A DNA stretch of 60,298 nucleotides from positions 81,430-141,727 of the forward strand of contig JBBTVD010000009.1 in the NCBI GenBank assembly GCA_038063415.1. The letters are read 5' to 3'. The DNA is from Patescibacteria group bacterium (GTDB taxonomy: Bacteria > Patescibacteriota > Microgenomatia > Levybacterales > UBA12049). The stretch's first letter is position 1. Each line of letters starts with the position of its first letter. The notes under the pieces were generated by a model. The model saw only the letters and a program-made list of their open reading frames with translations. It made no database searches and had not been told where the DNA came from. This document shows, one piece after another, positions 3,279-50,191 of this stretch. The position numbers were made by a program, and so were the translations under genes.

Positions 3279-3292
3279 TGACAAATTTGTCA
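3279..3292. promoter_or_regulatory. perfect palindrome TGACAAATTTGTCA (TTGACA/TGTCAA half-site family)
   Basis: Read directly. Same half-sites recur at 3755, 4568, 6952 and 7022. Confidence 0.4.
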
Positions 3293-3337
3293 ATAATTTT
3301 GTCAGTATCTATTTAAGTATAGACTATCTCTCTATCT

Positions 3338-3754: not shown

Positions 3755-3771
3755 TGTCAAGAATTTTGACA
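3755..3771. promoter_or_regulatory. inverted repeat TGTCAA-N5-TTGACA
   Basis: tgtcaagaattttgaca, lying upstream of the minus-strand hypothetical ORF. Confidence 0.4.
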
Positions 3772-3932: not shown

Positions 3933-4280
3933 CTATAATGACAAAAGTAACTTTACTGCTTTGATTACTTCTTCTAGTTTATCTCTCTCAAGAGATCCAA
4001 CTTTTTTCATAAGCCGCTTTTGATCAATACTGCGGATAAAAATGGGCAATAATACAGATTGTTTTTCCAGGCCTTCTTTTTCTCCAATAGTCACCATTTC
4101 CGGGCCAATTGTATGGGGAACTTGAGAACTTATTGGGATAACAATCACTGAAAAACTTTTTTGATTGATGACATTCTCAGAGAAAACAAGTGCAGGTCTT
4201 TTTTTGTGAAGTTCACGATGTGTGCCAGGTTCAAGGTCAACAATCCAGATATCACCTCGCTCTGCTATTTCGTCGGCCAT
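3933..4280 (-). CDS. PemK/MazF-family endoribonuclease toxin
   Basis: 115 aa with GDIWIVDLEPGTHRELHKKRPALVFS, typical of MazF/PemK. Overlaps the upstream antitoxin ORF by 16 nt. Confidence 0.75.
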   Translation of the reverse strand: MADEIAERGDIWIVDLEPGTHRELHKKRPALVFSENVINQKSFSVIVIPISSQVPHTIGPEMVTIGEKEGLEKQSVLLPIFIRSIDQKRLMKKVGSLERDKLEEVIKAVKLLLSL

Positions 4281-4501
4281 TGGTTTATTTCAGTCTCCTT
4301 CCACTCTTTTGCAATAGTTTTATAAAAGTGCTCGTTTTCCTTCAGACTTTTTTTGAGTTGTTTTTTTATATCTCCTGCATTCTCTAACTTCTCAGATATT
4401 GCATTAACAATAAATTGATTCCTTTTTTTGGAAGGGATGGTCAATTTAAGCTGTTCAAAAATTTCTTGAGGTAGTTGTATATTGGTTTGTTGAACGTTCA
4501 T
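4265..4501 (-). CDS. ribbon-helix-helix (CopG/MazE-like) antitoxin
   Basis: 78 aa from MNVQQTNIQLPQEIFEQLK...KKRNQFIVNAISEKL, an RHH-like pattern. Start chosen because the TTGACA-16-TATAAT promoter ends 6 nt upstream. Confidence 0.5.
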   Translation of the reverse strand: MNVQQTNIQLPQEIFEQLKLTIPSKKRNQFIVNAISEKLENAGDIKKQLKKSLKENEHFYKTIAKEWKETEINQWPTK

Positions 4502-4507
4502 AAACTT

Positions 4508-4535
4508 ATTATAGCTTACTTGCAATGCTTGTCAA
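4508..4535 (-). promoter_or_regulatory. sigma70-like promoter, TTGACA-16 nt-TATAAT (minus strand)
   Basis: -35 at 4530-4535 and -10 at 4508-4513, with ATG at 4501, so a leaderless geometry. Confidence 0.45.
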
Positions 4536-4567: not shown

Positions 4568-4586
4568 TTGTCAATAATCTTGACAA
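4568..4586. promoter_or_regulatory. inverted repeat TTGTCAA-N5-TTGACAA upstream of the STAND gene
   Basis: ttgtcaataatcttgacaa. An extended -10 (TGtTACAAT, 4593-4601) follows, and the GTG start is at 4611. Confidence 0.45.
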
Positions 4587-4610: not shown

Positions 4611-6908
4611 GTGAAAAAGTTTGGAGAGTTGTTCAAAAAATATCGTTTGCGTGCTGAGTTTGAGACGTTCCCCTCATTTGGCGAAGCTCTTTATGAGAAG
4701 GGATATCATCTGGAAAGTAGCATTTTTTCTCGGTGGCAAAATAATTCCCGTCTCCCCACTAGTCGTCAACTTATCCTTACTATCATTGGCATTTTTGTAG
4801 AAAAACGTGCTATTACTACGATTCACCAAGCAAATGAATTTCTTGCTGCGGCAGGACATGGATACATGACCGAAGAAGAAAAAGCTACTTTTTCCTTCCC
4901 GCAAGATCCCATTGTTCCCTTCCAAGTCCCACATGAAATTGCCAACTTTATTGGCAGAGAAAAGTTGATTACTGAGATAAAAAAAGACATTACTTCAGGC
5001 AAGATCATTATCCTTCACGGTCCGCCTGGTATAGGTAAAACAGCTCTCGCGATTAGACTAGGGCACCTCTTGCGAAGCGCGTACCCTGATGGCGTGCTCT
5101 GGTACAAAGTTGACTCTTCAAATGTGATAGATATTTTGCTTTCTCTTGCGCGACTCTTTGGTGAAGATATCCGCGCGATTAAAGATTTGGCCGTTCGCGC
5201 CTCTGTGGTGCGGACACTTCTCGAACATAAGAAACTTTTGCTTATTTTTGATAATGTTAGTAGTAAAGACAAAGCTCAGATATACGCATTGTTACCGAAC
5301 ACCCGCACTTGCGGGGTTATTTTTTCTTCACGAGAACAAAAGCTTGCGATTGCCTCCCCTACCGGCTTTTTTGCTGTGAAGCCTTTTGATGCCCTGGATG
5401 TGCTTTCTCTTTTTCAGCAGATTTTGGGAAGGTATTACGTGGTAAAGCACAAAAAGGAGATAGTAACCATTGGAGAAAAACTGGGGAATTTGCCATTAGC
5501 GGTTCACCTGGTGGCGACCAATGTTAGGCAGCACAAGCTTCGTTTGCAAGAGTATATAGATCAACTGAATACGGATTCTTTTGATCTTACGTCTCTCAAT
5601 TATGAGGATCGCAATTTGGCACGTGCGATAACAATGAGTTATGATGGTCTAACACATGAAGCAAAAGAGATATTTGTTTCATTAGGAGTCTTTGAAGGTA
5701 AAGATTTTTCTCTTGAAGCGGTTGCTTTTGTGAACAAGTTGTCACTTCGTAAAATTGAGTTGTTATTGCAAGAACTATCCAATCTTTCCCTTATTGAACA
5801 GTCACAATCTCATCGTTATCGAATACATCCCCTCCTTCGATCTTTTGCCCGTGAACAAATGAAAACTTCTTCTCCTTATTTACAAGCAGCTTTTTATTAT
5901 GAACAATTGCTCAATGAAGCTGATCAGAAAAACTCGTATAACCCTCTGACACATGAAGTTGATAATATTATTTACATCTTTAAAAAGTGTTACGATCTGG
6001 GTTACTGGGATCAAGTAATCACGCTCTGGAATCCTATTGAGAAGTTTCTTTCAGATATTAATGAGACGAAGAAACTTAAAAGTTTAACTCAGACAATTGA
6101 TACTGCACCAAGTGTAAATAATCTTCAAAAGATAATGACCGTTTATATGCTATTTTTGTTTTTATATTGGATTTTATTATCTCTTAGTGGTTTAAAGACA
6201 GGCTTTTGGAACTATTCTTCTTCTTTATTGAATAGTTTTATTCCCTTAATAGGAGGACTTGTTGGAATTTTTGGTTCAAGACATTGGGGGATGTTTAATA
6301 CAAATATTGGCAAAGCAATATTATTTATATCTATTGGTTTATCCTGTTGGGGTAGTGGTAATATCGTTTGGGGATATTATAATTTTTTTGCAAAAATTGA
6401 TATTCCTTATCCATCTTTTTCTGATATTGGATATCTCTCAGCAAGCATATTTTGGATATTTGGCAGTATATATCTTTCACGAGCAACAGGGGCAAAATTC
6501 TCTTTGAAAGCAAAGAAAAATAAACTTTTTCTTCTTCTGATTCCTTTTCTTATTATTTCTTTTTCCTGTTACATTTTGTTTTTTGTTATCAAACAAGGAA
6601 TCATTTTAGAACCTCCCTTAAAAATGTTTTTTGACCTTGCCTATCCAGTAGGAGATGTAATTATCTTGACTCTCGCTGTAATAATCTTTGGTCTTTCTGT
6701 TAATTTCTTTAGAAGAAAATATAGATTATCGTTGTTTATGATTCTTACTGGTTTTGTAGGAATGTATATATCTGATTTTATGTTCTCTTATACAACCTCA
6801 ATTGGGATTTACTATAATGGTAGCTTTACTGAGTTCATGTTCTGTATATCACTATTTTTTATTACTTGGGGCACACTTAGTTTCTATCTCACCCCAAAGA
6901 AGAAATGA
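4611..6908 (+). CDS. STAND NTPase: N-terminal XRE-like HTH + NB-ARC + short helical-repeat region + C-terminal polytopic membrane domain
   Basis: 765 aa with a GTG start. HTH-like residues 1-60, FIGRE, Walker A GPPGIGKTALA, Walker B LLLIFDNV, FSSREQ and GNLPLAV (GLPL-like). About 250 C-terminal residues form multiple hydrophobic helices. Confidence 0.75.
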   Translation: MKKFGELFKKYRLRAEFETFPSFGEALYEKGYHLESSIFSRWQNNSRLPTSRQLILTIIGIFVEKRAITTIHQANEFLAAAGHGYMTEEEKATFSFPQDPIVPFQVPHEIANFIGREKLITEIKKDITSGKIIILHGPPGIGKTALAIRLGHLLRSAYPDGVLWYKVDSSNVIDILLSLARLFGEDIRAIKDLAVRASVVRTLLEHKKLLLIFDNVSSKDKAQIYALLPNTRTCGVIFSSREQKLAIASPTGFFAVKPFDALDVLSLFQQILGRYYVVKHKKEIVTIGEKLGNLPLAVHLVATNVRQHKLRLQEYIDQLNTDSFDLTSLNYEDRNLARAITMSYDGLTHEAKEIFVSLGVFEGKDFSLEAVAFVNKLSLRKIELLLQELSNLSLIEQSQSHRYRIHPLLRSFAREQMKTSSPYLQAAFYYEQLLNEADQKNSYNPLTHEVDNIIYIFKKCYDLGYWDQVITLWNPIEKFLSDINETKKLKSLTQTIDTAPSVNNLQKIMTVYMLFLFLYWILLSLSGLKTGFWNYSSSLLNSFIPLIGGLVGIFGSRHWGMFNTNIGKAILFISIGLSCWGSGNIVWGYYNFFAKIDIPYPSFSDIGYLSASIFWIFGSIYLSRATGAKFSLKAKKNKLFLLLIPFLIISFSCYILFFVIKQGIILEPPLKMFFDLAYPVGDVIILTLAVIIFGLSVNFFRRKYRLSLFMILTGFVGMYISDFMFSYTTSIGIYYNGSFTEFMFCISLFFITWGTLSFYLTPKKK

Positions 6909-6951
6909 GAATTTAACTTTCAATAAAAAACCCATAGGATCATCTTTAATG

Positions 6952-6969
6952 ATTGACAATCTTGTCAAT
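6952..6969. promoter_or_regulatory. inverted repeat ATTGACAA-TC-TTGTCAAT
   Basis: Read directly, 44 nt after the STAND stop codon. Confidence 0.4.
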
Positions 6970-7021
6970 TAAGTGATACAAGTTAAGCATAGATCTGTTT
7001 GGCACAGGTTTTTCTTAGCTT

Positions 7022-7040
7022 CTGTCAAGAATCTTGACAG
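7022..7040. promoter_or_regulatory. perfect inverted repeat CTGTCAAG-AAT-CTTGACAG (TGTCAA-N5-TTGACA)
   Basis: Its right half is the -35 hexamer of the 7034-7062 promoter. Confidence 0.45.
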
Positions 7041-7062
7041 AATACTACAGGACATGTATAAT
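7034..7062 (+). promoter_or_regulatory. consensus sigma70-like promoter, TTGACA-17 nt-TATAAT
   Basis: Both hexamers match consensus perfectly. The first ATG downstream is at 7072, 9 nt after the -10. Confidence 0.55.
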
Positions 7063-7071
7063 TCAGTTAAT

Positions 7072-7608
7072 ATGTTGAATAAGCTTAGGATAAAGTTTTT
7101 ATCTGGCTTTAGACGTTCTGCTTCTGGGCAGAAGCATATTGATTCTGTTGAGAATACACCGACAAATCTTCCTCATCAGCAAACAACCACAAAAAGCACG
7201 TTAACGAAAGAAGAATATGAAAACCTTCCCTTTGGTATGCATCTCATGTTTGATGCGTATAACTGTGATCCTACTGTACTTGATGATTCAAATGTTCTTT
7301 ATACTCTGCTCGAAGGTCTTCCTGGCAAGCTTGGTATGAGACCGATGATTAAGCCATATATCGTCAGGACTCTCGGTAATGATAAACGAGATCCCGGAGG
7401 TTGGTCTGGGTTTGTCTTGATTGAAGAATCCCACATTAGTTTTCATACCTTTGTGAAGAGAAAATTTGTGACGGTTGATATTTATACATGCACCTTTTTT
7501 GATGCCGATAAAGCGACAAGGGAATTGAAGAAATTCTTTAAGACAGAAGATACGGAGACAATTGTAGAAACAAGGGGAAAAAGATATCCCAATGCAAATT
7601 TAATATAA
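7072..7608 (+). CDS. speH: pyruvoyl-dependent S-adenosylmethionine decarboxylase-like proenzyme (class 1, SpeH-like) with an N-terminal extension
   Basis: GMHLMFDAYNCD, GWSGFVLIEESHISFHTF (ES self-cleavage motif) and DIYTC match the SpeH pattern. Start moved to 7072 because the promoter lies inside the longer GTG-started ORF (6973). Confidence 0.6.
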   Translation: MLNKLRIKFLSGFRRSASGQKHIDSVENTPTNLPHQQTTTKSTLTKEEYENLPFGMHLMFDAYNCDPTVLDDSNVLYTLLEGLPGKLGMRPMIKPYIVRTLGNDKRDPGGWSGFVLIEESHISFHTFVKRKFVTVDIYTCTFFDADKATRELKKFFKTEDTETIVETRGKRYPNANLI

Positions 7609-7610
7609 AT

Positions 7611-8507
7611 ATGTTTAATGAGTGGTTCATTTTTGCTCTTTTAAGTCCCGCAATATTCGCAGTTGTAAATCTTCTTGATGATAATCTGTTAAAGCATTTG
7701 TACAGAACTCCATTCTTTGGTGCCATTATTTCTGGTTTTTTGGGTTTATTACCGCTTTTAGGATTATTCTTTTTTCCTTTTCAAATGCCACCTTTGTTTA
7801 TCATCTTTCTAGCACTGGGGAGTGGCTTCCTGACAATCATATATTATTTTTATTACTTTAAAGCGCTTGAAGTTGAAGTACCGTCAATTGTTGTTGCTCT
7901 GTTTGCATGGACTTCAGCGATAACACCATTTTTAGCCCACTTTCTCTTAGGTGAAAAACTTTCTGTAAATGAGATTGTAGGATTCATTATCGTTCTATCT
8001 GCTTCTATTGCATTATCTGTAACAGATATCAAGAGATTTCGTTTTTCAAAAGCTTTTTATTTAATCTTTTTTGCCTCCACAATTTATGCTATTGTTGCAA
8101 TTTTGCAAAAAACTGTCTATGAACAGGTTGATTTTTTTAGTGGGTATGTTTTTTTTGCGACAGGTTTGAGCCTAGGATCTCTTTTCCTTTCGATTGTGTT
8201 TAAAGAAGGAAGGAAGTTCTATGGAAATTTAAAAAAAATCTTTAAAAAGTGGTTTGGAGTTTTATTATTAGTAGAGATAGTTGGAATTGCTGCAGAATTA
8301 ACAAACAATTTAGCTATTAGTAAAGGTTCAGTCTCTTTAGTAAAGGTAGTTGAAGGCATTCAACCTATGATTGTCCTACTTTTTGCGCTCTTGTTATATC
8401 CTTTTTTGCCAAAGTATTTTCGAGAAGCAGCTGAAGGTGAAAAAATAAAAAAATTTATTCTCATGGGGATAATCGTTGTGGGACTTTATTTTATTCAAAT
8501 GGGATAG
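7611..8507 (+). CDS. DMT-superfamily (EamA-like) transporter
   Basis: 298 aa with about 10 hydrophobic helices in two halves. Starts 2 nt after the speH-like stop. Confidence 0.55.
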   Translation: MFNEWFIFALLSPAIFAVVNLLDDNLLKHLYRTPFFGAIISGFLGLLPLLGLFFFPFQMPPLFIIFLALGSGFLTIIYYFYYFKALEVEVPSIVVALFAWTSAITPFLAHFLLGEKLSVNEIVGFIIVLSASIALSVTDIKRFRFSKAFYLIFFASTIYAIVAILQKTVYEQVDFFSGYVFFATGLSLGSLFLSIVFKEGRKFYGNLKKIFKKWFGVLLLVEIVGIAAELTNNLAISKGSVSLVKVVEGIQPMIVLLFALLLYPFLPKYFREAAEGEKIKKFILMGIIVVGLYFIQMG

Positions 8508-8522
8508 GTTGCATTAGAAAAT

Positions 8523-9443
8523 ATGGATAAAATTCCAAAATTTCCAAAATTTAAAAATCTTAAGCTGTCAGACAAAGAAAAAATAGAATCTTTAGTAGCA
8601 GCCTTTTTGCCTTTTTCCGATTACAACTTCCTTAGTCTTTGGAGTTGGAATATTAGCGAGCAAACCCAAATTTCGATATTGAATAAAAACCTCGTTATAA
8701 AGTTTAATGATTACCTTACCAATGATACTTTTTATTCCTTATTTGGAGAGGACAAAATAGATAGTTCTATTGGTGCACTTTTTAAATATATAAAAAAAAA
8801 TCAAAAAACAAATATTCTCTTACGACTTGTCCCTGAATCGACAATTAAACATATAGTTAATAAAAAAAATTATCATTTTAATGAAGATAGAGATAATTTT
8901 GATTATATTTTTTCTGTCAATAAGATGTGTGATCTTAGAGGCGGTAGATATCGTGGGAAGAAAAATTTTATTAACAGATTTAAGAGAACATATGGTGAAA
9001 GAGCAGTAGTTAAAGAGTTAGATATTCAGAATAACAGTGTTCAGAATGATATAATTAAACTATTTGCTGATTGGAAAAAATCTAGAGGAAAAACAAGTAA
9101 AGAAATAAGGAACGAATTTTTTGCTGTCAAAAGATTATTAAAATATTGCAAGAGCTTCAATCTTGTCGTGGTAGGTATATTTATCGATTCAAAACTTAAA
9201 GCTGTATCAATTAATGAAGTTGTACAAAAAAATTATGGGATAGTTCATTTCCAGAAAGCTGATGCATCTTACACAGGTATTTTTCAATTTCTTACCCAAC
9301 AATCAGCAATAGCTTTTAAAAAATTGGGATGCAGACTTATTAATTACGAGCAGGATCTTGGCATAGAAGGGTTGAGAAATGCAAAATTAATGTGGCATCC
9401 AGTTAAATTTTTTAAAAAATATATAATATTAGAACAAATATAG
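8523..9443 (+). CDS. DUF2156 / MprF C-terminal (aminoacyl-phosphatidylglycerol synthase-like) domain protein
   Basis: 306 aa. PFSDYNFLSLWSW and RGGRYRGKKNFINRFKR resemble the stand-alone DUF2156 family as I recall it. Confidence 0.45.
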   Translation: MDKIPKFPKFKNLKLSDKEKIESLVAAFLPFSDYNFLSLWSWNISEQTQISILNKNLVIKFNDYLTNDTFYSLFGEDKIDSSIGALFKYIKKNQKTNILLRLVPESTIKHIVNKKNYHFNEDRDNFDYIFSVNKMCDLRGGRYRGKKNFINRFKRTYGERAVVKELDIQNNSVQNDIIKLFADWKKSRGKTSKEIRNEFFAVKRLLKYCKSFNLVVVGIFIDSKLKAVSINEVVQKNYGIVHFQKADASYTGIFQFLTQQSAIAFKKLGCRLINYEQDLGIEGLRNAKLMWHPVKFFKKYIILEQI

Positions 9444-9573
9444 ATTTATTACTAATCCTAAAGTTGTCTATGATATTAATGAATCCATCATCACATATGA
9501 AGTGAAAAAGTAACTTTTTGACTTTTAACAGAAGAGTATATAATCTTAAAATATAAGCTTAATTTTTTAATCT

Positions 9574-10389
9574 ATGTTAAACAATTTAAAAAAGAATTTT
9601 ACTTATCAGGCAGTCTTTGCATTATTCGTTTTTCTGACAATTTGGTGGCTTCTTCTTTATTTTTCTGAATCGAAAACGGGTTATCCCAATTATTTATTTG
9701 GAGTTGTCTATGGAACATTTATGGCTGGTGTTGGGACAATTATTGGATTTAAGACTGTAAAATATTGGGGTGGAATTCATAGTGTTATGGGAAGAGTTGT
9801 TCTTGCTCTTTCTCTTGGGCTTTTTGCGGAGTTTTTTGGTCAAGTAGTTTTTAGTTTTTACAATATTTTTCTTGGAATCGAAATTCCATATCCATCGTTA
9901 GCAGATATTGGTTTCTTTGGAAATATTCCATTTTATTTTATTGGTGCCCTTTTTCTTTTAAGAGCTTCAGGCGGTCATTTAAATCTTTCGTCTATTAAGT
10001 CACAAGCTCAGATTGTGCTTATCCCAGCTTGTGTATTATTCTTTTCTTATTATCTTTTTTTACAGAATTACACATTTGATTTGTCAAATTCTTTGTTGAT
10101 TTTTCTTGATTTTGGATATCCACTAGGACAAGCATTATATGTTTCTGTTGCAATTCTTACTTATGGATTGTCAAAAAATTCTTTAGGAGGAATAATGAGG
10201 AAAAAAATATTTTTAGTTTTACTTGCATTTGTTGCACAGTATTTTGCAGATTTTAATTTTCTATTTCAGAATAGTAGGGGTTCGTGGTACAACGGTGGAT
10301 ATGGTGACTATCTATACCTTGTTGCTTATTTTATTATGACTTTAGCCTTACTTCAACTAAATGTTAAATCATTAAAAAAAGAATCTTGA
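9574..10389 (+). CDS. polytopic membrane protein, paralog of the STAND C-terminal domain
   Basis: 271 aa. Shares KTGYPNY, IPYPSLADIGF, LRASGG, LDFGYPLGQ, FADFNF and WYNGG with residues ~515-765 of the 4611..6908 product. Confidence 0.6.
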   Translation: MLNNLKKNFTYQAVFALFVFLTIWWLLLYFSESKTGYPNYLFGVVYGTFMAGVGTIIGFKTVKYWGGIHSVMGRVVLALSLGLFAEFFGQVVFSFYNIFLGIEIPYPSLADIGFFGNIPFYFIGALFLLRASGGHLNLSSIKSQAQIVLIPACVLFFSYYLFLQNYTFDLSNSLLIFLDFGYPLGQALYVSVAILTYGLSKNSLGGIMRKKIFLVLLAFVAQYFADFNFLFQNSRGSWYNGGYGDYLYLVAYFIMTLALLQLNVKSLKKES

Positions 10390-10426
10390 TGGTAAAATAA
10401 AGTTAGAAAATTTTTATACCAATGGT

Positions 10427-10708
10427 ATGGACATATACACCCAACTAGCAAATAAGATAATAAAAGAACAAGAAACAATTATTGGTCCTATTGCCTGGGA
10501 ACAGGCTGCAAAAGTATCTGGCCTTTCAGTAGATGTCAAAAATCATCAATTCTCAATCGTCGGTACAAACAAAAAAGAAATCATTGAAAAACTGGTAGAA
10601 CAATATAAACTCCTCTTTGGCCAGACCTCGGTTGAGGTCTCCAAGGATGCTGTCAAAGATCTTATCTTGAGTACCTCACGAGACCAACTCCCTCAAATCC
10701 TCCTGTAA
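10427..10708 (+). CDS. hypothetical protein
   Basis: 93-aa ORF, no recognisable motif. Confidence 0.35.
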   Translation: MDIYTQLANKIIKEQETIIGPIAWEQAAKVSGLSVDVKNHQFSIVGTNKKEIIEKLVEQYKLLFGQTSVEVSKDAVKDLILSTSRDQLPQILL

Positions 10709-10750
10709 AAAACAATTGCTTTTTTAAAGAAAGCATAGTAGGATACAGAT

Positions 10751-10987
10751 ATGAACTCCATAAAAAAAGAATTGAAACATATTATTTATAAAGATAAAGA
10801 GATCTTAGGAGGAACGCCTTGTTTTGTTGGTACTCGGGTTCCTGTTGCTACAATTCTAGAGTATCTTTCTTTAGGATGGTCTATCAATGAGTTAAAGGAA
10901 TCTTACCCAACTGTTAAGACGGAGCATATTGCTCAATTATTATCAACGCTTTCGAGTGAATTCCAGGCACATGCAAAAGTCGCATAA
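10751..10987 (+). CDS. DUF433 domain protein (antitoxin-like)
   Basis: 78 aa with GGTPCFVGTRVPVATILEYL, characteristic of DUF433. Confidence 0.7.
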   Translation: MNSIKKELKHIIYKDKEILGGTPCFVGTRVPVATILEYLSLGWSINELKESYPTVKTEHIAQLLSTLSSEFQAHAKVA

Positions 10988-11312
10988 GGGCACAATTGTT
11001 ATAGACGAAGGAGCAAAAAGAGAATATGTTAAAATTGCTCAAGAAGAAGGCTCGAAAATTATCCTCATTCCTCCCTCCCAGAGAAATATTGGACTATCAG
11101 ATCGTGCTGTCGTTCAAAGATATACTAAAAATATTCATCCAATTTTTACCAATGATAAAACTTCATATAAAGAATCAGGTTTACTTACCTTAGGAAGAAA
11201 CGGTTATGTGGTCCATGAATTTGTAAGACGTGAAGAAGAAGATGCGTATCGAGAAAAAATTAAACTTTTTTTCAAGATGTATACTGAAAAACATACGCAT
11301 GGAGTAGTATAG
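10971..11312 (+). CDS. hypothetical protein, possible DUF5615/PIN-like partner of DUF433
   Basis: Overlaps the DUF433 stop. IVIDEG...ILIP...PIFTNDK loosely fits the PIN-like acidic pattern. Start uncertain (10929 or 10971). Confidence 0.3.
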   Translation: MQKSHKGTIVIDEGAKREYVKIAQEEGSKIILIPPSQRNIGLSDRAVVQRYTKNIHPIFTNDKTSYKESGLLTLGRNGYVVHEFVRREEEDAYREKIKLFFKMYTEKHTHGVV

Positions 11313-11399
11313 ACAATTAAAAAAATCGGAAAACCTGGAAAAAAGAAGCTTATGTTCTCACTGTAAAATTCTCTCAGAATTTGCTACAGTTAAATCAGT

Positions 11400-12878
11400 A
11401 TGAATATCTTAAAGGCGTTAGGTTTTGTCGAAGAAAAAGAACCAAAGAGTGACGTTGGGAATTCGCCAAATAATTCAGGAGAAGTTTCTCATATTAACCA
11501 GGAAGTGTACAAAAAAAGTGTCGAACTTTCTGTCCGCAATAAAACACTCTTACTTCTGCGTAAGATTGACGACATTATCTTAAATTCAGTTACCAACCAG
11601 CATGATATTGCCCAACAAGTAGCCTCACTTCTGGTACAGGATAGTGAGGTTCTCCTCGTTACTATCTTTATTACCAATCAAGAACAACGGATACTCGATG
11701 TTATCGCTTTTGCAGAGTCCTCAAATCAACAAGTACAAAAAATAGAATCGCTTCCTTTTACTCCTCGTGTCTCTTTTGATGATGTAAATAATATACTGAT
11801 TCAAGCAAGTACCCAGAGGACAGTAAAGTCTTCCAATACTATTAAGACTGTTCTCACTCCAATAGATACACAAACGTCGGCTCCATATGAAGAAATTAAA
11901 ACTGTCTTTGTCTTCCCATTACTTGCAAGGAACGAAGTGATTGGCACGATGGTTGTTGGCATGCGAGATGAAGAAGCACAAATATCTCCCGATGAACGTG
12001 ATTTGTTGCAACGACTTGTGGGCAGTGTTGGAATCGCTCTGTATAATGGCTTTTTGTACGACGAGCTCAAAAGAACCAACGATCGCCTCATTCAAGTCGA
12101 TAAACTAAAAGATGAATTTGTCTCACTCGCCTCTCATGAACTCAAGACTCCAATGTCTGCTATCAAGTCCTATCTTTGGATGGTTATGGATCCCCGTGAA
12201 GGAGCGCTCAATGAAAAGCAACTCACCTTTATTAAACGATCCTATATCTCTGTTGAACGTTTGATCAAAATGGTTGATGAGATGCTCAATATTTCCCGTA
12301 TCGAATCTGGCAGGATCAATATGAATCCTACCTCAATAGATATGATTAACCTTGTTGATGAAGTAAGAGACGAAGTGCTCCCTCGGGCAAATGAACTTGG
12401 TATAAACATTTTTATCCAGCCAAACGAGACTCTGCCTCCTGTTCTTGCTGATGCGAATAAGATTAAAGAAGTCCTTATTAATTTGATTGGGAATGCGCTT
12501 AAATTTACTCCGCGAGATGGTGCTATTACCATCTCCTTTAGTAAAGCCGGAGAAATGATTGAAACACATGTGCAAGATACGGGGGTTGGGATTGATCCTG
12601 CTGATTTATCTAAGCTCTTTCAAAAATTTAGTATGATTCCTACCTCCTACGAAGGGAACGAAGAATCCACAGGAACAGGGCTTGGGCTTTATATCTCCCG
12701 TTCTATTATTCAACTACATGGTGGGCAAATACGAGCCACTTCACAAGGAAAAGGAACAGGAACTACGTTTACCTTCTCACTGCAACCTTTTTCGGATGCT
12801 GCACTCACACAGTTTAAAGAACGATATAAAAATAGCCCTGATAAATCCGTTGAACTTATCCGCTCTAAAGTTGTTTGA
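11400..12878 (+). CDS. GAF-domain sensor histidine kinase (no adjacent response regulator)
   Basis: 492 aa with H-box SHELKTPMSAIKSY, N-box GNALKFTP, G1 DTGVGI and G2 GTGLGLYISRSI. Confidence 0.8.
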   Translation: MNILKALGFVEEKEPKSDVGNSPNNSGEVSHINQEVYKKSVELSVRNKTLLLLRKIDDIILNSVTNQHDIAQQVASLLVQDSEVLLVTIFITNQEQRILDVIAFAESSNQQVQKIESLPFTPRVSFDDVNNILIQASTQRTVKSSNTIKTVLTPIDTQTSAPYEEIKTVFVFPLLARNEVIGTMVVGMRDEEAQISPDERDLLQRLVGSVGIALYNGFLYDELKRTNDRLIQVDKLKDEFVSLASHELKTPMSAIKSYLWMVMDPREGALNEKQLTFIKRSYISVERLIKMVDEMLNISRIESGRINMNPTSIDMINLVDEVRDEVLPRANELGINIFIQPNETLPPVLADANKIKEVLINLIGNALKFTPRDGAITISFSKAGEMIETHVQDTGVGIDPADLSKLFQKFSMIPTSYEGNEESTGTGLGLYISRSIIQLHGGQIRATSQGKGTGTTFTFSLQPFSDAALTQFKERYKNSPDKSVELIRSKVV

Positions 12879-12917
12879 TAACTAGCTTTTCTTTTTGTTC
12901 TTCTGCATAATAATAGT

Positions 12918-13760
12918 ATGGAAATCTTTTTCTTCCTCTGCATTTTTATTTTCGGAACGTTTGTCGGGAGTTTTTTGGGAGTTCTGGTTGATCGGCTCCC
13001 TCGTGGTGAATCGGTGGTCTTTGGACGATCGTATTGTGAGAATTGCCAAAAAAAACTTACTGGTTGGGATCTCATTCCCCTCTTCTCATATCTTCTTTTG
13101 GGTGGTAAATGTCGACAGTGTCACAAAAAAATAAGTGCTTTTTACCCACTTATTGAATTTGTTACGGGGAGTATCTTTGTCTTGGTAACCTATGCTTTTG
13201 TTGGCAACGATCTTGCGCAATTGATCGAAACGTCACGGTATTCGGTTACGTATGTCTACTTTTTATCACTTTTTGCTACGCTTATTGGTATCTTTTTTAC
13301 GGACTTAAAATATGGCATTATCCCCTTCCCTATTGTTTTCTTCTCGTTATTAACAACGTTTCTGTGGTATTTCCTTTTTCCTGTCTTTTCTTTTACCCCA
13401 GCCGATCAGGTATTTTTCCCAACTGATGAGGCTTTTCTTTCAGGGGCTCTCTGGTCTGCACTTGGGACATTTCTTGCGTTTTTGCTCCTTTTTCTTGGAA
13501 CAAAAGGTAAGGGTATTGGTTTTGGTGATGTCGTGTATGTCTTCTTGATGGGACTTGTTCTTGGGTTTCCACGGATTATCTTGGGACTCTATATTGCTTT
13601 TCTTTCAGGTGCAATTATTTCTGTATTACTCGTTGCTACGGGTAAGAAAAAAATGCGGGGTGAGACAATTCCTTTTGGACCTTTTCTGGTAACTGGGACA
13701 GTGATAAGCTTACTGTGGGGAGAGAAAATTATTCAGTTTGTTGTAGGATATTTATTTTGA
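12918..13760 (+). CDS. pilD: prepilin peptidase (A24 family)
   Basis: 280 aa with CENCQKKL..GGKCRQCHKKIS zinc motif and multiple TM helices. Stop overlaps the next pilin ATG (ATGA). Confidence 0.85.
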   Translation: MEIFFFLCIFIFGTFVGSFLGVLVDRLPRGESVVFGRSYCENCQKKLTGWDLIPLFSYLLLGGKCRQCHKKISAFYPLIEFVTGSIFVLVTYAFVGNDLAQLIETSRYSVTYVYFLSLFATLIGIFFTDLKYGIIPFPIVFFSLLTTFLWYFLFPVFSFTPADQVFFPTDEAFLSGALWSALGTFLAFLLLFLGTKGKGIGFGDVVYVFLMGLVLGFPRIILGLYIAFLSGAIISVLLVATGKKKMRGETIPFGPFLVTGTVISLLWGEKIIQFVVGYLF

Positions 13761-14266
13761 TGAAAAAAGGATTTACGCTTATTGAAATATTGGTCATTAT
13801 TGCTGTGCTTGGAGTACTGGCAAGTGCGGTACTTTTTGTGCTCAATCCTATGGATCAGATACGTAAATCCAATGATGCCAAAAGAAAAGCCAGTCTGGGT
13901 CAAGTACAAAGTGCCTTAGAACTGTATTATCAGGATACAGGACGATATCCAGCTTCTTCTTCGAATTTTCAACTCTATATAAATAACGTAACGATCTCTT
14001 GGGGGAATAGCTGGATGCCTTATATGAGTAAACTACCAACAGATCCGACTTTTGGTAAGACATTTGTCTATTATTCTCCTGCAAGTTCAAATGGACAAAC
14101 GTACTATCTCTATGCCAATTTGGAACGTGGAGCAAAGGATGCACAGGTGTGTAACGCTGGCAATGCTTGTACGAGTATTACCAGTGGTGGTGCAGGTGCC
14201 CCTTCCGCTACAGCGTGTGGTGGGACGTGTAATTATGGTGTTTCCAGTCCAAATACTGTACCATAA
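13760..14266 (+). CDS. type IV pilin-like protein
   Basis: Prepilin leader MKKG|FTLIEILVIIAVLGVLA. Start reset from 13715 to the ATG that overlaps the pilD stop. Confidence 0.75.
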   Translation: MKKGFTLIEILVIIAVLGVLASAVLFVLNPMDQIRKSNDAKRKASLGQVQSALELYYQDTGRYPASSSNFQLYINNVTISWGNSWMPYMSKLPTDPTFGKTFVYYSPASSNGQTYYLYANLERGAKDAQVCNAGNACTSITSGGAGAPSATACGGTCNYGVSSPNTVP

Positions 14267-14275
14267 TACCTAGCT

Positions 14276-14716
14276 ATGAAAAAGAAAAGAAAAGGTTTTT
14301 TGAGAGGATTTACGCTGATTGAGTTACTCGTTGTGATCTCAATCATTGGTGTGTTATCGACCTTTCTGACGGTTAATTTCCTTGGAACGAGAGCTCGTAC
14401 TCGTGATGCTCAGCGAAAAGCAGATATGCAACAAATTCGTTCAGCGATTGAAATTTACCGATCTGATCAAGGAAGTTATCCAACCACACTTCCTGCTTGT
14501 AATAGTGCATTGCGTGTAGGAACGACAACCTATATGCAAAAAGTTCCTTGTGATCCAACAAATACCACACCACTTACCTATCGGTTTACCTCGACCGGAA
14601 CAACGTATACCTTAGCAGCTTGTCTTGAAAATATAAATGATGCACAAAAAGATGTGACGAATGTTACTCCTTGCAACGGAACTTCTAGTTGGTCTTATAC
14701 CCTTACGAATCCATGA
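14276..14716 (+). CDS. GspG/PulG-like pseudopilin
   Basis: Leader ...LRG|FTLIELLVVISIIGVLS, then RARTRDAQRKADMQQIRSAIEIY. Confidence 0.75.
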   Translation: MKKKRKGFLRGFTLIELLVVISIIGVLSTFLTVNFLGTRARTRDAQRKADMQQIRSAIEIYRSDQGSYPTTLPACNSALRVGTTTYMQKVPCDPTNTTPLTYRFTSTGTTYTLAACLENINDAQKDVTNVTPCNGTSSWSYTLTNP

Positions 14717-15174
14717 AGACACTGACGGGATTTACGCTGATTGAATTACTTATCGTTATTGCCACACTCGCTCTTGTGACGACGTTTAGTATTGCTTCAT
14801 ACTCTGACTATCAAAATGCACAAAAAGTTGAAACTTCTGCTTCAGAAGTAGTAACGCTTTTTCAAACTGCAAAATCTCGTGCTCTTTCACAAGTGAAGCC
14901 AACCGTATGCAATGGAAGAGTGCTTGAATCTTATCGGGTAACAATTACACCAGGGGCGCAGAATTATGTATTATCAGTTATTTGTAGTGGTGTTGTTACG
15001 CAGCTTGAAACAAAAAAACTGTCTCAAGATGTTCTCTTTACTACTGGATCAACGACAACTATTACTTTTTCTCTTTTGACAGGTGCCGCGACTTCGGGGA
15101 CAATAAACATAACTGGTTATGGTAAAACAAAAACAATTACTGTTAATACTGTTGGGAATATAGGAGTAAACTAA
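14713..15174 (+). CDS. prepilin-type N-terminal cleavage/methylation domain protein (minor pilin)
   Basis: MKTLTG|FTLIELLIVIATL. ATGA overlap with the upstream stop. Confidence 0.65.
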   Translation: MKTLTGFTLIELLIVIATLALVTTFSIASYSDYQNAQKVETSASEVVTLFQTAKSRALSQVKPTVCNGRVLESYRVTITPGAQNYVLSVICSGVVTQLETKKLSQDVLFTTGSTTTITFSLLTGAATSGTINITGYGKTKTITVNTVGNIGVN

Positions 15175-15189
15175 AAAACTAATATAAGT

Positions 15190-15672
15190 ATGAAAACAAA
15201 CAATCCAAAAATTATTAATCAATCTGGACAAACACTTATTGAGGTACTCGTATCTCTCAGTATTTTGGTTATGATTATGGGTGCTACTGCTATTGCCTTG
15301 ACTAATGCACTTGATAATGCACAATACGTCAAAAACCAGGCAACTGCTACGAAATATGCTCAAGAAGGTATTGAGATAGCTAGGGGTATACGAGATGCCA
15401 ATTACACACAATTCCGCAACTATAGCGGGACGTATTGTCTTGCCAAAGATCAAACTACTTTGGGTGCTCCATCAGCTTCCTGCACAACTGCCAATGTCGA
15501 TCAATTTGTGCGATCGGTAGTCGTTGAACAAACACCAGGATGTGCTACCGATGTAGCAAGAGCAACAATAACGGTAGCTTGGAGAGATGGCAAATGTTCT
15601 GGTGCTACCTACTGCCATACATCACAGCATGTTTCATGTCTTTCGACAGTTAATCCAATATCGGCACCATGA
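15190..15672 (+). CDS. prepilin-type minor pilin (non-canonical +1 Gln)
   Basis: ...NQSG|QTLIEVLVSLSILVMI. Confidence 0.55.
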   Translation: MKTNNPKIINQSGQTLIEVLVSLSILVMIMGATAIALTNALDNAQYVKNQATATKYAQEGIEIARGIRDANYTQFRNYSGTYCLAKDQTTLGAPSASCTTANVDQFVRSVVVEQTPGCATDVARATITVAWRDGKCSGATYCHTSQHVSCLSTVNPISAP

Positions 15673-16193
15673 AAGAAAATAAAATATCATCTGGTTTCAC
15701 CTTGGTTGAGGTGCTGGTTGCGATTAGTATCATCGCAATTATTGGCGTGTTAATTATTTCTGTTTTGACACTTAGTCTACGAGGAAGTAACAAAGCTGAA
15801 GTCTCTTCTGTAGTAAAACAACAAGGGAACACGGTGCTTACGCAAATTGCCAGAAAACTTCGTTACGCAAAGACCTTGGATAATCCTGCCAGCTGTGTGC
15901 CGTCAACTACGGTAGCTTCACTTACCATTACTGATGTCTCAAATACCCAAACGACCTACGCTTGTACGTCGGGAAGTATTACGGTATTATCTGCAAATGG
16001 CGTCCCATTGATTGATACGAATGCAGTTGCTATGAGTAACTGTTCTTTTGTTTGTAGTCAACAAACGCTTCTTGATCCTCCAACGGTACGGATACAATTC
16101 CTACTGACGGCAAAATCTACTAGTCAACTTGCCGAAACACAATCATCACTTCCTTTTCAGACAAGTATTACGCTACGAAACTATAATCGGTAA
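15669..16193 (+). CDS. prepilin-type minor pilin
   Basis: MKENKISSG|FTLVEVLVAISIIAIIG. 4-nt overlap with the upstream gene. Confidence 0.65.
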   Translation: MKENKISSGFTLVEVLVAISIIAIIGVLIISVLTLSLRGSNKAEVSSVVKQQGNTVLTQIARKLRYAKTLDNPASCVPSTTVASLTITDVSNTQTTYACTSGSITVLSANGVPLIDTNAVAMSNCSFVCSQQTLLDPPTVRIQFLLTAKSTSQLAETQSSLPFQTSITLRNYNR

Positions 16194-49741: not shown

Positions 49742-50191
49742 TTAATCAAGAGTAACTGTTTGCATAAGCTTTGTAATATAATCCGCAGGCAAGAGATCTT
49801 TAGATTCGGTTATTAATGCAATATATTCTTTGGTTGGTAAGAGATTTTCTTGTAGAGTAAATGGGGTGGCAACATATGTTGTAGCTTCTACTTTATCTCC
49901 CGAAGATAGTGTCACAAATACTTCTTCTCTCGTATATCCTATTGGATAATCTTCCGTTTTGTCAATAATCTTGACATCTTCGTCAGTAAGTTCGTAGAGA
50001 ATTCCATGAATGCCTGTCTTATTGTTGTCAGAAATAATTGTCGCAAAACCTTTTTGTGGATGTGACGCTGCCTGTTTAGTAAAAACAAGTGAGTATTTAG
50101 GCAAAAAAGCAGCTTGTCTTGTTGAAGGATCAACGCCGATATGCTTCATCCATGTCTGGCTCATGAGGGCTCCGTATGCGAAGAGTTTCAT
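49742..50191 (-). CDS. gamma-glutamylcyclotransferase (AIG2/GGACT-like)
   Basis: 149 aa with MKLFAYGALMS N-terminus and size typical of the family. Confidence 0.65.
   Translation of the reverse strand: MKLFAYGALMSQTWMKHIGVDPSTRQAAFLPKYSLVFTKQAASHPQKGFATIISDNNKTGIHGILYELTDEDVKIIDKTEDYPIGYTREEVFVTLSSGDKVEATTYVATPFTLQENLLPTKEYIALITESKDLLPADYITKLMQTVTLD

Follow-up and report, generated by a model that had tools for sequence, protein, structure and literature searches.

Transcription regulators that are switched by a STAND NTPase are known from AfsR, MalT and GutR (PMC10936776; PMC13581612). The transmembrane transcription regulators (TTRs) are defined by a DNA-binding domain and at least one transmembrane (TM) region, and in a survey of 50,302 TTRs the DNA-binding domain used most often was the helix-turn-helix (HTH), and 27% of the proteins had at least three TM helices (PMC10269533). 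Here we analyzed a 60,298-nucleotide stretch of DNA (hereafter the window) from a Patescibacteria group bacterium of the Levybacterales (contig JBBTVD010000009.1, positions 81,430 to 141,727 of the forward strand), which encodes a 765-residue protein that appears to combine both principles. An N-terminal helical domain (designated HTHn), an NB-ARC module, a helical linker and a C-terminal eight-helix integral membrane module (designated TM8) are joined in one polypeptide, and a free-standing TM8 paralog of 271 residues, a 93-residue soluble protein (p93) and a histidine kinase are encoded downstream. To our knowledge, the mechanistically characterized STAND/NLR switches are all gated by soluble sensor arms (TPR, WD40, LRR or SUPR). 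In the conserved family described here, the soluble arm is replaced by an integral membrane module at the identical position, which raises the structural question of how a helix bundle in the bilayer could keep the NB-ARC module closed and then release it. The reading that we favor, and consider reasonably probable, is that the protein is a STAND-switched transmembrane one-component transcription regulator of an amine-decarboxylase/transporter cassette. Precedents exist for all of its elements; the protein would combine known principles on a large uncurated domain family.

AfsR, a transcription factor, is the closest characterized relative. As in AfsR, a putative DNA-binding N-terminus is followed by an NB-ARC/NOD (nucleotide-binding oligomerization domain) switch and a C-terminal sensor arm, and the NOD is homologous. 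The MHD-like switch histidine is also kept (His406), in line with the His-Asp switch of AfsR (10.64898/2026.09.02.748808), and a candidate operator lies over the −35 region, as do the binding sites of SARP activators (PMC10936776). Unlike AfsR, which has a SARP unit (OmpR-wHTH and BTAD), the present protein has at its N-terminus a small helical domain that resembles HTH_31. In place of the TPR sensor, it carries an integral membrane module of eight TM helices, and the regulator must therefore act from the membrane. The lineage also differs, being the Candidate Phyla Radiation (CPR) instead of Actinomycetota. CPR bacteria have small genomes and are probably host-dependent.

With TTRs such as ToxR, CadC and TcpP, the protein shares a putative DNA-binding domain and a membrane-spanning sensor in a single polypeptide and, like CadC beside cadBA (PMC5430869), its gene adjoins an operon for an amino-acid decarboxylase and a transporter. 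In contrast to TTRs, a STAND ATPase switch of ~400 residues lies between the DNA-binding and membrane parts, and TM8 is unrelated in sequence to the membrane parts of ToxR/CadC or BcrR. BcrR (XRE-HTH and four TM helices) is presumably the nearest simple analog of the direct HTHn-TM8 fusions at two of the loci described below (L036 and L048). TM8 resembles the polytopic sensor modules MASE1-5, HisKA_7TM, 5TMR-LYT and 7TMR-DISM in that it has many helices and little extramembrane mass, occurs N-terminal to PAS/GAF-HisKA-HATPase units and is linked to varied outputs, but it differs from them in its eight helices, its own motifs and its usual occurrence as a free-standing protein with a 93-residue partner. 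A non-repeat, membrane-embedded C-terminus is also known from bacterial NACHT/Avs STAND proteins with a C-terminal TM region (10.1101/2022.07.19.500537); unlike these, the present protein belongs to the NB-ARC (AP-ATPase) clade and has neither an effector domain nor a defense context. NB-ARC and XRE never occur in the text of the TTR survey, where "stand" and "ATPase" are incidental only (PMC10269533), and "transmembrane" appears in the 2026 STAND phylogeny paper only as a figure-legend abbreviation. In the open-access literature, we found no description of an NB-ARC regulator with an integral membrane sensor arm, of TM8 or of p93. With the present protein, the TTR class would gain an ATP-driven member.

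A STAND protein family with a C-terminal membrane module

The STAND-TM8 gene (4611-6908; features lie on the forward strand unless stated otherwise) starts with GTG and encodes 765 residues (protein cluster P0026). A preliminary description of the window, made from the letters and the translated open reading frames (ORFs), had named this ORF and the 271-residue one, and both are present. The motifs that it quoted for a clear NB-ARC module (FIGRE, GPPGIGKTALA, LLLIFDNV, FSSREQ and GNLPLAV) all occur in the translation, and the Pfam NB-ARC model bears the assignment out, with a match to residues 122-345 at E = 9.2e-16 (58.3 bits versus a cut-off of 23.5; profile positions 11-247 of 248). The NACHT model gave 22.4 bits, under its cut-off of 26.7. 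The module comprises the P-loop, ARC/helical and winged-helix parts (residues ~101-420; 4911-5870). Of the solved structures, AfsR is the nearest by sequence (E = 1.9e-29, residues 92-415), and Apaf-1 (E = 3e-12) and NRC4 come next. The NCBIfam AfsR, HaaT and FxSxx-system TPR models matched the NOD region only (residues ~87-421, E = 1e-28 to 1e-37), and the AfsR model (E = 2e-36, residues 98-417) scored 125 bits versus an equivalog cut-off of 1430. The 765-residue protein has no Pfam match to PF00486 or PF03704, the Trans_reg_C wHTH and BTAD parts of the SARP unit, or to TPR families. In an alignment of 26 family members, Walker A (GPPGIGKT, Lys143), Walker B (LLLIFDN, Asp214), the GxP motif (GNLPLA, Gly292/Pro295) and the histidine at the MHD position (RIHP, His406) are invariant. 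As judged from its sequence, the protein is a genuine STAND NTPase of the NB-ARC type, and its nucleotide-binding motifs are intact.

The helical linker (residues ~426-500, ~80 residues; 5886-6110) aligns with the region after the winged helix in sister proteins that end in TPR repeats; the alignment with one of them, P0074, reaches residue 482. It is missing from a shorter class of the family (~683 residues) and is conserved together with TM8 in locus L001 (see below). The linker appears to be a remnant of the start of a repeat arm.

The N-terminal domain HTHn (~95 residues; 4611-4895) is a probable divergent XRE/HTH_31-type DNA-binding domain, as suggested by profile and model comparisons. 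Residues 1-95 are highly conserved, with a mean column identity of 60%, and the AlphaFold2 (AF2) model consists of six helices with a pLDDT of 94. The sensible Foldseek matches were of the XRE type (SinR with a root-mean-square deviation (rmsd) of 1.5 Å over 59 columns, EspR, PrgX, Stl, HigA2 and CI), with E values of 0.5 or higher. When compared with the N-termini of HTH_31 proteins by hhalign, HTHn gave colinear, weak alignments (E = 0.057 and E = 0.006, 83 columns), and it carries an insertion in the HTH region relative to HTH_31. A profile search of PDB sequences with HTHn found nothing. The domain is mobile, being also present in HTHn-1TM-SBP_bac_3 proteins (P0106-P0108, 65-66% identity) and joined directly to TM8.

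The last ~265 residues of the protein include TM8 (6114-6905), which belongs to subfamily A. They align end to end with the 271-residue ORF at 33% identity (144 bits, E = 1e-46), whereas 200 shuffled versions of that ORF averaged 15.9 bits and did not exceed 28.1 bits. All six motif pairs on which the preliminary description had based the homology of the two membrane parts fall into register. The multi-pass helices that it had noted were also recovered, both hydropathy and AF2 predicting eight TM segments. In the AF2 model, built on a 20-sequence alignment, the eight TM helices are long (pLDDT 83.8, pTM 0.85), and the Lys+Arg counts per loop obey the positive-inside rule for an N-in/C-in topology.

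The family was collected by searches with residues 1-505 and then with a local hidden Markov model of the membrane module, and proteins were clustered at 90% identity. At least 60 protein clusters of Microgenomates (CPR), from independent assemblies, share the STAND-TM8 architecture and fall into two classes. The long class (~46 clusters, 760-813 residues, 44-59% identity) has TM8 at residues ~500-765 (E = 1e-59 to 1e-100), and the short class (at least 14 clusters, ~673-700 residues) lacks the 80-residue linker and has TM8 at residues ~423-680. A sister group of 727-747 residues carries TPR repeats at the C-terminus in place of TM8; TPRs were detected in P0074, P0077-P0079, P0082, P0090, P0091, P0093, P0096 and P0101. 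TM8 occupies exactly the position of the TPR sensor arm in these sisters. The window protein itself is recorded on three contigs, and 18 further genomic loci carry STAND-TM8 as a continuous ORF. A word-indexed search with the TM8 segment gave 25 free-standing proteins and no fusion, and the apparent uniqueness of the fusion was an artefact of that search because it missed the window's own protein along with ~60 long fusions. When each GTDB species was represented by one genome and these genomes were scanned, 51 loci were obtained. Those with a specific taxon name are all from Microgenomates (Roizman-, Levy-, Gottesman- and Daviesbacteria), except for one labeled Methylomirabilota and one labeled Weeksellaceae; many locus titles read "uncultured Gammaproteobacteria", which we took as a placeholder.

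At locus L001, an ORF (1-1260) encodes the linker and TM8 with 60% amino acid and 68% nucleotide identity to the part of the window that encodes residues 426-765. It was considered as a second full fusion and rejected, as a stop codon stands where residue ~425 would be and the 226 nucleotides upstream show no similarity to NB-ARC. The L001 gene is either truncated or rearranged, or the short contig is chimeric; the linker-TM8 junction is all that it confirms, and it does so independently. Tandem STAND-TM8 paralogs occur at two loci, as a short-class and a long-class gene in L009 (4895-9310) and as two long-class genes in L007 (4550-9403); in each tandem, the upstream operator described below is present only at the first gene.

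TM8 and the free TM8-p93-kinase genes

An exhaustive profile search recovered 5,396 representative proteins with TM8 at E ≤ 1e-3, 324 of them at E ≤ 1e-30. Most are free-standing proteins of ~265-290 residues, and every named member is from CPR. TM8 has no match in Pfam or NCBIfam; with 20 members searched at E ≤ 10, only scattered single-member noise was obtained, and the Pfam models of MASE1-5, HisKA_7TM, 5TMR-LYT and 7TMR-DISM gave no TM8 match even at E = 10. A fold search of the PDB with TM8 returned nothing significant (best E = 0.012, TM-score ≈ 0.4), and MprF-like membrane domains were not among the listed matches. Kinship with GPCRs or rhodopsins was considered and rejected as a generic 7TM resemblance (E ≥ 0.012, TM-score 0.33-0.47, rmsd 7-15 Å).

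The motif set of TM8 is W…N…WG…YN, PYPSxAD, K..D..YP.GD, DF.FSY.T and YYNG, and ~45 positions are invariant or nearly so. Two of the conserved motifs, PYPSxAD between TM3 and TM4 and YYNG between TM7 and TM8, are in loops on the outer face. Conserved charged residues are found within the helices (Asp605, Lys671, Asp675, Asp682, Asp722 and Glu741, the last being mostly Asp in the family), and there are conserved acidic residues in TM4, TM6 and TM7. A 4+4 internal duplication was considered from a weak hhalign match of TM3-4 with TM7-8 (E = 0.011) and is not relied on.

As had been suggested, we searched for the membrane domain on other signaling outputs, and it was found on histidine kinases, winged-helix HTH (wHTH) proteins and HTHn. 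P0187 is a TM8-PAS-HisKA-HATPase protein, and P0279 consists of TM8 (17-262), a p93-like segment (271-347) and a GAF-HisKA-HATPase kinase. P0153 combines HisKA_7TM with TM8; in P0141 and P0177, a TrmB-type wHTH precedes a C-terminal TM8. At L036 and L048, HTHn is joined directly to TM8. The eight-helix N-in/C-in topology fits these arrangements because cytoplasmic partner domains occur at both ends of TM8. On the basis of this domain architecture, TM8 is most likely a sensory input module. At L036 (7799-11578), three tandem HTHn-TM8 genes (~400-456 residues, without NB-ARC) precede genes for a decarboxylase of the AdoMet_dc type and for a free TM8. By analogy, these genes appear to be a simpler, BcrR-like version of the same regulator.

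In the window, the free-standing TM8 paralog (9574-10389, 271 residues, subfamily B), which also lacks a Pfam or NCBIfam match, is followed by p93 (10427-10708, 93 residues) and a GAF-HisKA-HATPase histidine kinase (11400-12878; NCBIfam histidine kinase matches at residues ~220-470). The kinase has no convincing TM segment (maximum hydropathy 1.69). No Pfam match was found for p93, nor any PDB sequence match at E ≤ 10, but it is homologous to the C-terminal extension of TM8 proteins of ~370-390 residues (E = 1e-22 to 1e-9) and to residues 271-347 of P0279. Residues 23-458 of the window kinase align with residues 358-789 of P0279 (E = 5.5e-36). The gene order TM8-p93-(kinase) is kept in every locus examined, and p93 always follows the free TM8. 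Because the one fused chain of P0279 covers three window genes, the free TM8, p93 and the GAF kinase are predicted to form a split sensor kinase. TM8 and p93, both outside Pfam and NCBIfam, would explain a recurrent pair of "hypothetical" genes in CPR genomes.

The two TM8 copies of the window belong to different subfamilies, the fused one clustering with long-class fusions and the free one with short-class fusions. They are ancient paralogs and not recent duplicates, as indicated by this split and by their 31% identity in the subfamily comparison. Matched pairs of fused and free TM8 at each locus were considered and rejected, since the subfamilies show no consistent pairing. A single-domain receiver gene follows the kinase in L009, L015, L021, L029 and L048; a tblastn search of the 60-kb window with the L009 receiver found no response regulator at E ≤ 1e-4.

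A candidate operator and the decarboxylase cassette

A 17-bp palindrome (TGTCAA-N5-TTGACA; degenerate form TGTCAR-N5-YTGACA) precedes both the STAND-TM8 gene and the decarboxylase gene downstream of it. The copy TGTCAAtaatcTTGACA (4569-4585), an exact match, lies 42 nucleotides before the STAND start codon. The copy TGTCAAgaatcTTGACA (7023-7039, within 7023-7062) provides with its right half the −35 element of the decarboxylase promoter, TTGACA-17-TATAAT (7034-7062), which matches the consensus at 12/12 positions. An everted related palindrome, TTGACAAtcTTGTCAA (6953-6968), read directly from the sequence, is located right after the STAND stop codon. With at most one mismatch allowed, the window contains five operator matches versus 0.37 expected, and none of 100 shuffles reached five. 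In 872 kb of fetched loci, the site density within 200 nucleotides upstream of HTHn genes is 32-79 times higher than elsewhere, and most HTHn-domain genes in other genomes have the palindrome 40-70 nucleotides upstream. In its degenerate form, 33 of 44 sites are within 350 nucleotides upstream of HTHn genes; three of the remaining ones precede Pfam-HTH_31 proteins of ~270 residues, the N-termini of which are colinear with HTHn. For HTHn as a DNA-binding domain, the palindrome is stronger evidence than the profile and model comparisons. From this distribution, we infer that the palindrome is a candidate autoregulatory operator, which in the window would also control the adjacent operon. A riboswitch or attenuator was sought in the ~170-nucleotide decarboxylase leader, with no Rfam match at E ≤ 1 and a fold z-score of +0.6.

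The adjacent operon begins with a pyruvoyl-type decarboxylase of the AdoMet_dc family (6973-7608; Pfam E = 1e-23, residues 90-202). Its start is probably Met89 (7237) and not the listed GTG at 6973, because the promoter lies inside the listed ORF; homologous decarboxylase ORFs are ~125-137 residues long. An EamA-family transporter (7611-8507; Pfam E = 2e-12), conserved in the cassette, and a soluble LPG_synthase_C (DUF2156)-like protein without a TM segment (8523-9443; Pfam E = 2e-26) follow. At orthologous loci, the decarboxylase slot is occupied by three unrelated families, namely AdoMet_dc-type pyruvoyl enzymes, PvlArgDC and PLP-type Orn/Arg/DAP decarboxylases (compare the window at 6973-7608 with L009 at 9380-9889 and L010 at 10138-11313), a case of non-orthologous displacement, and some loci add an amine- or guanidino-methyltransferase-like gene. 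In L008, L010 and L040, the cassette is headed by HTHn-1TM-SBP_bac_3 regulators. Polar or basic amino acids are the typical ligands of SBP_bac_3 proteins. An amine or basic amino-acid theme is suggested by the displacement among the decarboxylases and by the acidic residues that TM8 has within the membrane.

Synteny was counted over those loci for which 3 kb or more of sequence was available downstream. A free TM8 with p93 is encoded within 10 kb downstream in 16 of 18 STAND-TM8 loci versus one of nine loci of the TPR-ended sisters (Fisher p = 1.7e-4). A decarboxylase is present in 9 and a kinase in 13 of the 18 STAND-TM8 loci, and the LPG_synthase_C-like gene stands beside the free TM8 in seven.

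Two more operator-like palindromes are found upstream of the system at 3288-3304 and 3755-3771, one with a single mismatch and one exact. The segment 3765-3854 encodes 31 residues that are left from the C-terminal end of an HTHn-1TM-SBP_bac_3 regulator (61% identity), and this relic and both palindromes lie within ~800 nucleotides of otherwise non-coding sequence just upstream of a MazEF pair. In L008, a gene of this type immediately precedes the STAND gene and is intact, so that the copy in the window has apparently decayed beside the toxin-antitoxin insertion. An exact copy of the STAND-upstream operator, TGTCAATAATCTTGACA (49960-49976), is also present inside an ORF on the reverse strand (49742-50191, 149 residues), which by eye is gamma-glutamylcyclotransferase/AIG2-like.

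Proposed function, alternatives and genomic surroundings

The preliminary description had proposed either a membrane-tethered, ligand-switched transcription factor or an Avs-like defense protein. The former is supported by the input-module architecture of TM8 and by the conserved upstream palindrome. We propose that HTHn would bind the 17-bp palindrome as a dimer or oligomer and that TM8, in its N-in/C-in orientation, would perceive a membrane or extracytoplasmic signal; our leading guess for the ligand is a cationic amine or basic amino acid tied to the decarboxylase cassette. The signal would lift the autoinhibition of the NB-ARC module, permitting ADP/ATP exchange and self-association as in MalT, GutR and AfsR, and this switching could alter operator occupancy at the regulator's own promoter and at the decarboxylase/EamA operon. 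Relief of repression by the signal is slightly favored, because the operator overlaps the −35 element of a perfect consensus promoter; by analogy with AfsR, activation of the Class-II type may be the alternative. The free TM8 copy, p93 and the GAF kinase would then constitute a parallel, split two-component sensor on the same module. The finding is directly testable because the operator, the promoter and the switch residues are in hand, and the candidate operator together with its target operon would make regulation in uncultivated CPR bacteria accessible in heterologous hosts.

Several observations weigh against this regulator. The XRE-like HTH of the preliminary description stood in part and is the least secure element of the protein: XRE-type folds lead the sensible Foldseek matches and the operator context is in keeping with it, but the Pfam HTH models, searched with three HTHn representatives, gave zero families at E ≤ 10, and both the profile-profile and the Foldseek matches of HTHn are sub-threshold. 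For TM8, no structural homolog was found in the PDB, so it is the domain architecture that carries the label of a sensor. The right half of the operator resembles a −35 hexamer, and part of the motif signal could come from promoters, although a −35 element alone leaves the upstream inverted half and the specificity for HTHn genes unexplained. Most other loci have no separate operator before the decarboxylase, and the cassette would there come under the control of the regulator through likely co-transcription. Finally, the cassette is missing at two STAND-TM8 loci, L007 and L035.

A bolder extension, which we offer tentatively and regard as rather unlikely, is that TM8 is a new receptor module, largely or wholly of CPR, for a cationic amine, a basic amino acid or the charge state of the membrane. 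It would feed three outputs, an HTH directly, an HTH via an NLR-like switch and a kinase via a p93 adaptor, and the fused and free copies of the window would form one membrane signaling complex, in which an NLR-type switch is linked to a two-component pathway that controls amine production and export. If this is true, gating by an integral membrane receptor domain would be shown for an NB-ARC protein for the first time.

It is also conceivable, if unlikely, that the main role of TM8 in the cassette is transport, as a transporter or transceptor (for example for arginine, agmatine or another amine), or catalysis, as a membrane enzyme. The STAND part would then regulate, or be regulated by, transport, and the kinase fusions would be trigger-transporter arrangements instead of dedicated sensors. 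The conserved charged residues inside the helices are what a transporter might show, as is the weak hint of a 4+4 repeat; in cassettes lacking EamA (L002-L005, L019 and L020), TM8 is the sole membrane protein beside the decarboxylase, and the free-standing form is the majority form. Nevertheless, TM8 shows no similarity to transporter families in Pfam, NCBIfam or the PDB, and it recurs with three different signaling outputs. Nearly every free TM8 has p93 after it, in most cases together with a kinase, and the three parts make up a single chain in P0279. A transport role would moreover be compatible with sensing and not exclusive of it.

The fused TM8 might instead serve as a mere membrane anchor or docking module, with the signal perceived elsewhere, for example by the free TM8-p93-kinase set or through a cytoplasmic ligand acting on the NB-ARC module or linker; the fused TM8 may then pair with the free copy. 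Such a role would agree with the co-occurrence of fused and free TM8 in 16 of 18 loci, with the short class, which drops the linker and yet keeps TM8, and with the possibility that the STAND core itself binds small molecules. We consider it decidedly unlikely, as eight helices with ~45 near-invariant positions, including loops on the outer face, exceed the needs of an anchor. The lack of any pattern in the pairing of fused and free subfamilies gives no sign of co-evolving pairs, and TM8 substitutes exactly for the TPR sensor arm of the sister proteins.

An antiviral STAND protein of the Avs-like or bNACHT-like kind, in which the TM module would be a cell-killing effector or a phage sensor, was the second proposal of the preliminary description and is very improbable. 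STAND NTPases are common in defense, bacterial NACHT proteins with a C-terminal TM region are a recognized category (10.1101/2022.07.19.500537), toxin-antitoxin genes lie nearby, and the GC content dips to 0.29-0.33 at 6-10 kb. The best PADLOC match (E = 0.0013, 16 bits) is noise restricted to the P-loop, however, and the N-terminus is HTH-like with its own candidate operator, in contrast to a nuclease, protease, TIR or SIR2 domain. Ordinary histidine kinases begin with the same TM8, the closest characterized relative, AfsR, is a transcription factor, and no effector domain is present. The gene sits in a conserved chromosomal cassette of metabolic and signaling genes with pilus and housekeeping flanks and not in a variable defense island.

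That a truncated STAND gene and an independent TM8 gene were joined into the long ORF by an error of assembly or gene calling, an outcome against which the preliminary description had cautioned and which might be read from the free-standing hits of the word-indexed search, from the homology starting exactly at the N-termini of free TM8 proteins and from the stop codon upstream of the linker in L001, has a negligible probability and is refuted by the same continuous ORF in at least 60 independent clusters and 18 further loci, by the three contigs of P0026 and by the oversight of the window's own protein in that search.

The accessory stretch of the preliminary description is not supported. Across Microgenomates, the decarboxylase/EamA/TM8/p93/kinase cassette is kept, and the toxin-antitoxin genes have been inserted into it. 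One toxin-antitoxin-like pair (10751-11312) is inserted between p93 and the kinase (DUF433, E = 2e-17; DUF5615, E = 0.014, below the cut-off). A MazF toxin (3933-4280; PemK_toxin, E = 4e-24) and its upstream antitoxin ORF (4265-4525), together 3933-4525 on the reverse strand, are outside the system. In L009, the p93-kinase region (12886-14333) contains two MNT/HEPN pairs, and L010, in which no kinase was seen, has an MNT/HepT pair (15239-15753) ~3 kb downstream of p93. The p93-kinase region looks like a recurrent site of toxin-antitoxin insertion inside the conserved cassette.

The GC content at 6001-10000 is 0.33 and then 0.29, versus ~0.40 in the rest of the window; the dip may reflect membrane proteins rich in Phe, Ile and Tyr or a different history of the cassette. 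The flanks (106-2387 and 12918-16193) contain what by eye are type IV pilus genes (a PilT-like ATPase, a PilC-like platform protein and a prepilin peptidase), and several flanking ORFs carry an N-terminal GFTLIELLVV prepilin motif, which would make the surroundings of the housekeeping and not of the island type.

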